From the NCBI RefSeq assembly GCF_003334335.1, contig NZ_QOWQ01000004.1: a stretch of DNA of 64,000 nt; one strand, given 5' to 3'. Positions 39,711 through 40,300 of the stretch are shown one piece after another; the stretch's first letter is position 1, and the number at the start of each line of letters is the position of its first letter. The stretch comes from Escherichia coli (lineage in GTDB: Bacteria > Pseudomonadota > Gammaproteobacteria > Enterobacterales > Enterobacteriaceae). A program made the position numbers and the translations under genes. The notes beneath the pieces are model-generated. The model was not told the origin of the DNA. It did not search any database and was given only the letters and a program-made list of their open reading frames with translations.

Positions 39711-40100
39711 ATGAAAAAGCTGCAAATTGCGGTAGGTATTATTCGCAACGAGAACAATGAAATCTTTATAACGCGTCGCGCAGCAGATGCGCACATGGCG
39801 AATAAACTGGAGTTTCCCGGCGGTAAAATTGAAATGGGTGAAACGCCGGAACAGGCGGTGGTGCGTGAACTTCAGGAAGAAGTCGGGATTACCCCCCAAC
39901 ATTTTTCGCTATTTGAAAAACTGGAATATGAATTCCCGGACAGGCATATAACACTGTGGTTTTGGCTGGTCGAACGCTGGGAAGGGGAGCCGTGGGGTAA
40001 AGAAGGGCAACCCGGTGAGTGGATGTCGCTGGTCGGTCTTAATGCCGATGATTTTCCGCCAGCCAATGAACCGGTAATTGCGAAGCTTAAACGTCTGTAG
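39711..40100 (+). CDS. mutT: 8-oxo-dGTP diphosphatase (Nudix)
   Basis: 129-aa ORF; Nudix box GGKIEMGETPEQAVVRELQEEVGI. Confidence 0.9.
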   Translation: MKKLQIAVGIIRNENNEIFITRRAADAHMANKLEFPGGKIEMGETPEQAVVRELQEEVGITPQHFSLFEKLEYEFPDRHITLWFWLVERWEGEPWGKEGQPGEWMSLVGLNADDFPPANEPVIAKLKRL

Positions 40101-40300
40101 GTCAGATAAGGCGTTTTCGCCGCATCCGACATTCGCACACGATGCCTGATGCGACGCTGGCGCGTCTTATCAGGCCTAAAGGGATTTCTAACTCATTGAT
40201 AAATTTGTTTTTGTAGGTCGGATAAGGCGTTCACGCCGCATCCGACATTTGCACAAGATGCCTGATGCGACGCTGTCCGCGTCTTATCAGGCCTACGTGC
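40097..40300. repeat. REP element cluster (two BIME-like pairs, four REP units)
   Basis: Repeated GTAGGTC(A/G)GATAAGGCG...CGCATCCGACA and GCCTGATGCGACGC...GCGTCTTATCAGGCCTA units between mutT and yacG. Confidence 0.7.

Follow-up and report, generated by a model that had tools for sequence, protein, structure and literature searches.

The window analyzed here, a stretch of 64,000 nucleotides of Escherichia coli DNA, contains the convergent genes mutT and yacG. Upon genome comparison, positions 39850-40550 of the window were found to be 100% identical to positions 111,183-111,883 of MG1655-type chromosomes, such that an MG1655 coordinate equals the window position plus 71,333, and the repeat array described below (40097-40296) corresponds to approximately 111,430-111,629 of E. 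coli K-12 MG1655. The RefSeq K-12 record gives the gene order secA, mutT (+), yacG (-), zapD, with the array positioned between the ends of the convergent operons secM-secA-mutT and coaE-zapD-yacG. At this place, the NC_000913.3 feature table shows four CDS without any repeat feature, and its locus tags skip from b0099 to b0101, leaving out b0100. A spacer of 215 bp, as claimed in an earlier reading of the sequence (the original prediction), was borne out by the gene coordinates, and a site scan of this spacer found no intrinsic-terminator-like or promoter-like site. The features of the locus are as follows:

39711-40100, + strand: mutT, b0099 in RefSeq
40101-40315: mutT/yacG spacer, exactly 215 bp, between the convergent genes
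40097-40130, + strand: REP unit a, y type, 31/35 against the y consensus, with a y core match; first hairpin of the RF02564 match
40131-40143, no strand: head-to-head linker of module 1, 13 nt, ATTCGCACACGAT, conserved across 22 Escherichia modules
40144-40179, - strand: REP unit b, z2 type, 35/37 against the z2 consensus, an exact match to the REP pattern, with 5'-GTAG on the - strand
40180-40212, no strand: tail-to-tail inter-module linker, 33 nt, AT-rich, with an IHF core
40213-40246, + strand: REP unit c, y type, 32/35 against the y consensus, y core with 0 mismatches
40247-40259, no strand: head-to-head linker of module 2, 13 nt, ATTTGCACAAGAT
40260-40296, - strand: REP unit d, z2 type, the loop having one additional base, 36/37 against the z2 consensus
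40297-40315, no strand: tail before the yacG stop, 19 nt, containing GCATCAGAC
40316-40513, - strand: yacG, b0101 in RefSeq, stop codon at 40316-40318

The array in the mutT-yacG spacer consists of four true REPs in the order y, z2, y, z2, that is, two inverted pairs in tandem, as judged with the y and z2 consensus strings quoted in PMC11208160. These four units make up two modules of 83 and 84 nt with a repeat spacing of 116-117 bp, each module consisting of a y REP followed, after a 13-nt linker, by a z2 REP in inverted orientation. On the + strand, unit a reads 5'-GTAGG...-3', the reverse complement of the classical y consensus; GTAG occurs at 40097 and 40213 and CTAC at 40293-40296, and the tail of unit b is degenerate, with CTAA for CTAC. 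A self-comparison of the spacer showed a direct repeat that recurs after 116/117 bp, in which 64 nt at 92% identity are followed by 18 nt at 100%, and each repeat copy holds two hairpin-forming palindromes (inverted repeats I2, I4, and I6). Both hairpins of the Rfam structure contain internal loops, as REP stems with their mismatches do, and the array is extragenic except for a 4-nt overlap with the end of mutT. The original prediction of four REP units in two near-identical inverted-pair modules was thus confirmed by the consensus matches and the direct repeat, and the inverted-repeat structure whose absence had been named beforehand as grounds for giving it up was present, as palindromes in each copy. 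Its statement that the spacer consists almost entirely of these modules can be made more precise: the modules themselves cover 163 of the 215 bases, and 196 are reached upon counting the inter-module linker as well. The overlap of unit a with the mutT stop and the IHF core in the inter-module linker had both been missed. The sequence GCATCAGAC in the 19-nt tail is a probable relic of one arm of a further z-type REP (inverted repeats I8/I9); in E. whittamii, a truncated z2 is joined directly to the homologous tail.

That these palindromes arose by chance, or that the spacer instead encodes a small protein, has a practically negligible probability in our estimate. The y core pattern matched three times in the 64-kb window against an expectation of 0.00, and a looser REP pattern matched 16 times against 5.6 expected, with six of the 16 matches inside the 200-bp array. 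The array furthermore folded with z-scores of -5.9 (+ strand) and -6.4 (- strand), and none of 200 shuffles folded equally well; motif counts and folding together exclude a chance origin. Open reading frames of 44-81 aa do cross the spacer (40231-40365 on the - strand, 40249-40452 and 40265-40510 on the + strand), and the gap in the locus tags at b0100 could be taken as a hint in the same direction. However, these frames pass through the REP units and run antisense to yacG, they would be destroyed or duplicated by the 116-bp copy-number changes described below, and none is annotated in RefSeq; the small-protein candidate was rejected on these grounds. Elsewhere in the window, a second REP pair lies at 803-887 and accounts for three of the 16 looser-pattern matches.

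BIME-type REP-pair arrays occur hundreds of times in E. coli, and a 701-bp query covering the locus matched E. coli genomes at a median of 17 places each, in keeping with REPs as repeats with many genomic copies. BIMEs are defined as inverted REP pairs and come in two main classes: BIME-2, with y and z2 REPs, a short linker, and a variable number of tandem copies, and BIME-1, with y and z1 REPs, a long linker with an IHF site, and a single copy, chimeras of the two being termed 'atypical' (PMC3333891). We are highly confident that the mutT-yacG array is a BIME for which the best label is atypical, as it mixes BIME-2 and BIME-1 features. With BIME-2 arrays such as those at sucC-sucB and tldD-yhdP it shares the REP types, their alternating orientation, the short head-to-head linker, and the variable tandem copies, but it differs from them in its 33-nt tail-to-tail linker with an IHF core, a feature of the BIME-1 L linker. 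Compared by length and content only, this linker fits an L-like description better than s, l, or r. Conversely, BIME-1 elements (RIP/RIB) resemble the array in having, at transcription-unit 3' ends, a pair of facing REPs separated by a linker of ~33 nt that contains an IHF consensus, whereas the partner of y is here z2 rather than z1 and the copies are in tandem rather than single. No z1 REP or BIME-1 match was found in the 64-kb window.

The array begins inside mutT. Its first base is 40097, and the GTAG of unit a includes the TAG at 40098-40100 that serves as the mutT stop codon. Upon comparing alleles, we found two main forms of this fusion. In K-12, E. albertii, Escherichia sp. E1V33, and an IS621-bearing allele, mutT ends in CTG TAG followed by G, within GTAGG, giving a protein of 129 aa; the tag is GTAT in O157:H7, 2009C-3133, and the CFT073-type allele, and the frame there runs on through V Y V G to a TAA in the REP stem (GGATAAGG), which extends mutT by three codons to 132 aa. 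Two further lineages, MOD1-EC7003 and E. whittamii, carry a TAA stop at the position of the K-12 TAG. Among the alleles compared, the Escherichia mutT frame always terminates within the first REP. A related arrangement was seen outside the genus, in Enterobacter, Leclercia, and Lelliottia, where the spacer of 33-34 bp is filled by a single z1-like REP whose GTAG includes the TAG of mutT. These REPs resemble the E. coli array in having a GTAG-tagged palindrome one base before the mutT stop, in the same convergent spacer; they differ from it in being one z1-like unit, unpaired, not in tandem, and lacking an IHF linker.

The distance between a REP and a stop codon has been linked to translation: REPs lying closer to the stop than 16 nt (within 15 nt) were reported to stall ribosomes and to lower translation (Liang, Rudd, and Deutscher 2015, as cited in PMC12306157). 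The mutT REP lies within this distance, its first hairpin beginning at the last base of the stop codon, and the z2 REP on the yacG side, which begins 19 nt past the yacG stop, falls outside it. By analogy with the reported cases, the first REP therefore probably damps MutT synthesis, as its hairpin is within 15 nt of the stop. A much stronger version of this idea would make the stop-fused REP a tunable brake on MutT, in which ribosome stalling and mRNA stability depend on the GTAG or GTAT tag and on the number of modules, lineages differ in MutT levels and hence in their A:T-to-C:G mutation rate, and the recurrent GTAG-donated stop in Enterobacter and Leclercia reflects selection. We consider this extended scenario a long shot. 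The natural alleles with one to five modules, with or without a GTAG stop, could serve to test the reported influence of a stop-proximal REP on translation in mutT, a gene for which dosage matters to the mutation rate.

The number of modules varied as well. We examined 5,426 complete E. coli genomes, a sample biased to laboratory and clinical lineages, with queries designed to match at the mutT/yacG locus alone; the resulting allele counts are counts of genomes, not of independent events. The locus was found in every one of these genomes. About 55% of them carry one module (obtained by subtraction, in agreement with an evenly spaced sample of the ranked matches), ~38% carry two, and ~1% carry three or four. 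In the evenly spaced sample, match spans of ~585, 701, and 817 bp differed by steps of 116 bp. When sequences were compared directly, O157:H7 had one module, K-12 two, and ETEC1717 three; the middle module of ETEC1717 is a hybrid between those of K-12, the product that unequal exchange should yield. The K-12-type inter-module linker occurred in 1,868 genomes at 1,921 places, with at most three per genome and hence up to four modules, and about 50 or fewer genomes have at least three modules of this linker type. A diverged two-module allele with a different linker was present in 222 genomes. In 288 genomes the locus was interrupted, meaning that no contiguous match reached 80% coverage of the query. 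Essentially all E. coli retain at least one module (5,138 genomes with a contiguous locus and 275 with an insertion sequence, of 5,426), and some alleles contain degenerate REPs, with GTAG changed to GTAT or CTAC to CTAA. Strain-to-strain variation in copy number had been predicted, with a comparison across genomes as the proposed check; that comparison showed one, two, three, and up to four modules in E. coli, and five in E. albertii.

To place the array in a wider context, we scanned species-representative genomes for MutT and obtained 80 loci, 79 of them usable. In all 79, mutT and yacG are convergent neighbors, with spacers ranging from -4 bp (overlapping stops) to 562 bp. Counting modules as matches above the gathering threshold of the Rfam model, we found five in E. 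albertii and in Escherichia sp. E1V33 (of a cryptic Escherichia clade), two in Escherichia sp. MOD1-EC7003, two plus one weaker copy in SCPM-O-B-8794 (a divergent strain labelled E. coli, with a MutT 90% identical), and one plus a truncated copy in E. whittamii. Salmonella, Citrobacter, Klebsiella, Enterobacter, Kosakonia, and Buttiauxella had none. Citrobacter carries different REPs (y and z1-like) in this spacer, 6-11 nt past the stop, the spacers of most other genera are short and hold unrelated hairpins, and in many enterobacterial genera the spacer measures 23-60 bp or the stops overlap, with no REP. Because so many genera lack a REP at this place, mutT and yacG do not need the array.

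Within Escherichia, 22 modules from eight genomes showed a mean column identity of 92%, the internal linker included. This level of identity across species, extending into the internal linker, argues for a single origin at mutT/yacG and indicates one ancestral module whose copies arose by duplication and disappeared at this site, and not a series of independent insertions. The y-z2 module would have become fixed beside the mutT stop no later than the base of the genus Escherichia, and its number may have grown and shrunk in 116-bp steps via unequal recombination or slippage between the direct repeats; such stepwise change would yield one to five modules with n-1 linkers. The hairpins are maintained in these modules, with in-register pairing in 96.6% of cells compared to 26-45% when the partners were slid. 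Among the 22 homologous modules there were no compensatory double substitutions, and, as the modules are too conserved, covariation gives no independent structural support; structure conservation cannot be separated here from plain sequence conservation or concerted evolution. The only compensated difference, relative to the genome-wide y consensus, is a change from GCCGG/CCGGC to GTCGG/CCGAC, which is present in all modules.

At 40189-40201, the inter-module linker matches the IHF core consensus exactly (TAACTCATTGATA), with the - strand reading WATCAANNNNTTR and an A-tract 5' of the core. The core pattern matched four times in the window against 2.1 expected, so that a match alone is weak. 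Across Escherichia, the core was exact in 14 of 16 homologous inter-module linkers, and the kept cores vary only at N positions (CTCA, CTCG, TTCA, CATG), which suggests some constraint on the candidate IHF site, the 16 linkers being few and related by descent. One lineage has no IHF core, having lost TTGAT. The linker measures 33 nt here and ~36 nt in other alleles, and the K-12-type linker sequence is specific to this locus, with one place per K-12 genome. From these sequence comparisons, the linker is a probable IHF site, and the original claim of IHF binding stands at the level of sequence only (exact consensus, 14 of 16 linkers). An IHF role cannot be essential, because ~55% of E. coli have a single module without a linker and one lineage lost the core. 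The inter-module linkers may also resemble parts of the BIME-1 L motif, which we take as a lead only.

The array acts as a landing pad for REP-targeting insertion sequences, as shown directly by the interrupted alleles. The natural target of IS621, a bridge-RNA recombinase element, is the 11-nt sequence ATCAGGCCTAC with core dinucleotide CT (PMC11208160). A perfect copy of this target, including the CT core, lies at 40286-40296 inside unit d; in unit b the target is imperfect because the tail reads CTAA instead of CTAC. IS621 was present at one exact position in the spacer in 181 of the 288 interrupted genomes, where the target is split between ATCAGGCCT and AC and the element is flanked by ATCAGGCCT on one side and CTAC on the other. 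In STEC17-183, for instance, IS621 sits between TCTTATCAGGCCT and CTACGTGCGG, with CT on each side. A further 94 of the 288 carry IS1397, an element specific for REPs (PMC1525189), likewise at one exact position, in the loop of the z2 REP (between GACGCTGG and TGGCGCG in CFSAN067215). The 181 IS621 carriers include O26 and O103 STEC, and the 94 IS1397 carriers include CFT073, Nissle 1917, ABU 83972, and ATCC 25922; both counts are dominated by clonal lineages, namely, O26/O103 STEC and the ST73-like CFT073/Nissle group. The expectation that the spacer is a target for insertion was thus borne out by two elements, both within a z2 REP.

These observations bear on whether the array serves the cell at all. 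It may be a neutral, selfish, or hitch-hiking repeat without host function that persists in a safe spot between the ends of convergent genes, a reading that we hold to be a serious possibility, though short of even chances. Its copy number varies freely, insertions are tolerated in 5% of genomes, other genera have either no REP or unrelated REPs in the same spacer, and the REPs are degenerate in some alleles (GTAT, CTAA), all of which would be expected of such a passenger. A pure passenger is harder to reconcile with the retention of at least one module in essentially all E. coli and across Escherichia species, with IHF core positions that are conserved while the N positions vary, and with a mutT frame that always ends inside the first REP.

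Several roles may be considered in turn. At the RNA level, the stable hairpins with which both convergent transcripts end would block 3' exonucleases, as REPs are known as 3' protective structures (PMC6061677), and they would set the steady-state mRNA 3' ends in a spacer without an intrinsic terminator. On the DNA, IHF probably binds each inter-module linker and the y REPs may be sites for gyrase, which is known to cleave a subset of BIME-2, mainly within y REPs (PMC6379681). The units could also be recognized by the REP-associated transposase, which requires GTAG, a stem mismatch, and a CC|T cleavage motif (PMC3333891); GTAG/CTAC tags, a stem mismatch, and CC|T motifs are all present in the units. 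For mRNA stabilization and gyrase binding, which the original prediction had also put forward, we infer a role at mutT-yacG by carrying over what is known of the REP family. In the parts of the literature that our survey covered (gyrase Topo-Seq supplements and work on IHF, Term-seq, RepRanger, and naRNA4), mutT and yacG were not named.

The convergent arrangement raises the possibility that the main role of the array is that of a bidirectional attenuator or terminator of the secA-mutT and coaE-zapD-yacG transcripts, with the hairpins pausing RNA polymerase and Rho finishing the process. The absence of an intrinsic terminator from the spacer between these convergent genes fits such a role, attenuation of transcription by BIMEs has been described (Espeli, Moulin, and Boccard 2001, as cited in PMC6061677), and Rho-dependent 3' ends are often found at REPs (PMC6061677). 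Yet related genera manage with overlapping stops or spacers of 23-60 bp, and Term-seq data favor REPs as protectors of processed ends, with termination located further downstream (PMC6061677). We therefore regard attenuation as the main role as unlikely, albeit worth keeping in mind.

A different function is suggested by the Rfam family RF02564 (naRNA4, CssrE), which both modules match over model positions 1-77, with scores of 77.8 and 78.4 bits compared to a gathering threshold of 59.5; the match of module 1 spans 40100-40176. The family derives from REP325, located between yjdM and yjdN, which has six 77-nt Y-linker-Z2 units and whose RNA was reported to condense the nucleoid together with HU (PMC4550694). 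By extension, the modules could be naRNA4 (CssrE) sRNA genes, from which processed 77-nt y-z2 RNAs of the mutT 3' UTR bind HU, bridge cruciform DNA, and condense the nucleoid. The full-length matches above the gathering score speak for this possibility, as do a score ~25 bits higher on the + strand, the sense strand of mutT, than on the - strand, the 77-nt Y-linker-Z2 design shared with the REP325 units, and the reported transcription of many REPs (~80% according to the abstract or 152/355 according to the results section of PMC4550694). However, RF02564 effectively models y-z2 pairs in general, such that a match attests architecture and not function. While the array and REP325 are alike in the 77-nt two-hairpin unit, REP325 has six units compared to two here, and the two differ in their inter-unit sequence and in their internal linkers, the 13-nt linker of the array being unlike that of REP325. 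Furthermore, the spacer has no promoter-like site, its copy number ranges from one to five with no known consequence, and PMC4550694 assigns the nucleoid phenotype to REP325 itself, makes no mention of the mutT/yacG locus, and contains no evidence of HU binding or a nucleoid role for its array. An sRNA function of this kind hence appears improbable to us.

None of the proposed roles is essential, because most E. coli have one module without a linker and many genera have no REP at this place. The most fitting view of the array is that of a repeat which is tolerated and partly domesticated, not of a dedicated regulatory device. REP and BIME arrays, their copy-number variation, their association with IHF and gyrase, and their targeting by IS621 and IS1397 are all already known; what the present locus adds is a REP-encoded stop codon with two allelic forms, a quantified copy-number spectrum, and the natural occupancy by IS621 and IS1397, which makes the site a natural chromosomal location of a bridge-RNA recombinase element. 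Finally, the length of the array provides a simple marker that separates E. coli lineages.

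We found that a single REP base decides between two natural C-termini of MutT in E. coli (window 40098-40100). Where the REP carries GTAG, it supplies the mutT stop codon TAG and the protein has 129 aa and ends in ...KRL (L002 and the IS621-bearing allele, L005), whereas in loci with GTAT, namely those of the O157:H7, 2009C-3133 and CFT073 types (L003, L004 and L006), the frame extends via V-Y-V-G to a TAA within the REP stem, giving 132 aa. In Enterobacter, Leclercia and Lelliottia, the mutT-yacG spacer of 33-34 bp is occupied by one z1-like REP (about 1590-1625 in L042, L054, L062, L069, L071, L076 and L082-L084), and the mutT TAG stop is part of the GTAG of that REP, as in GTAG-type Escherichia. 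The mutT stop of C. amalonaticus (L021) is a TAA within GGATAAGG of a y-like REP. In Salmonella enterica subsp. diarizonae and arizonae (L012, L013), the spacer measures 314-340 bp (about 1597-1937) and opens with a GGGGATC...GATCCCC hairpin; no E. coli-type REP was found in it.

The 2009C-3133 type allele (n = 222 genomes) may retain a trace of an earlier insertion. At about 415-430 of L004, the first z2 REP has the tail TTATCAG-TAT-CTAC in place of TTATCAGGCCTAC. Because the right junction of IS621 in L005 reads ...AACAGTAT/CTAC (slash, junction), the TAT could be the footprint of a past IS621, a weak suggestion that draws on three informative nucleotides. The former element would have been lost via a deletion across the CAG microhomology.

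A second REP pair, a z2 and an inverted y, is located at window 803-887:

803-839, z2 REP, in which positions 829-839 match the IS621 target perfectly
14-nt tail-to-tail linker between z2 and y
853-886, inverted y REP, with exactly the sequence of unit c between mutT and yacG

The IHF core is absent from the 14-nt linker of this pair. Since its orientation is tail-to-tail, the pair received no call from the naRNA4 model (Rfam RF02564), which describes a y-z2 pair. Other Rfam families matched elsewhere in the window, all of them at gathering level:

39627-39696, plus strand, STnc40 (RF02057), in the secA-mutT spacer, 84 bits versus a gathering score of 45
33891-33980, plus strand, PssrA ('Plasmid-encoded Shigella sRNA A', RF02797), 105.5 bits, here on the K-12 chromosome
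6034-6260, SgrS
12240-12389, Leu leader
51568-51681, tp2
4178-4277, TPP riboswitch

The STnc40 match includes the 3' end of secA as well as the hairpin ahead of mutT, and it recurs at Escherichia, Salmonella, Citrobacter, Klebsiella, Enterobacter, Buttiauxella and Kosakonia loci.

In NC_000913.3 (L001, 110800-112100), the locus tags run from b0099 (mutT) to b0101 (yacG) and skip b0100, which we take to have been an early ORF call within the REP spacer that was afterwards withdrawn. ORFs of 44-81 aa spanning the spacer were rejected as REP artefacts. YacG, encoded at window 40316-40513, is a DNA gyrase inhibitor, and its gene adjoins a possible gyrase-binding BIME; we treat this adjacency as a coincidence, because genera that lack the BIME have yacG at the same position.

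Among the genome matches to window 39850-40550, the laboratory strain E. coli DTU-1 (NZ_CP026612.1) carries an IS1A copy within the matching segment, and its annotation gives the MutT CDS in two pieces. On these grounds mutT appears to be disrupted in this strain, which, if true, would make E. coli DTU-1 a likely mutator.
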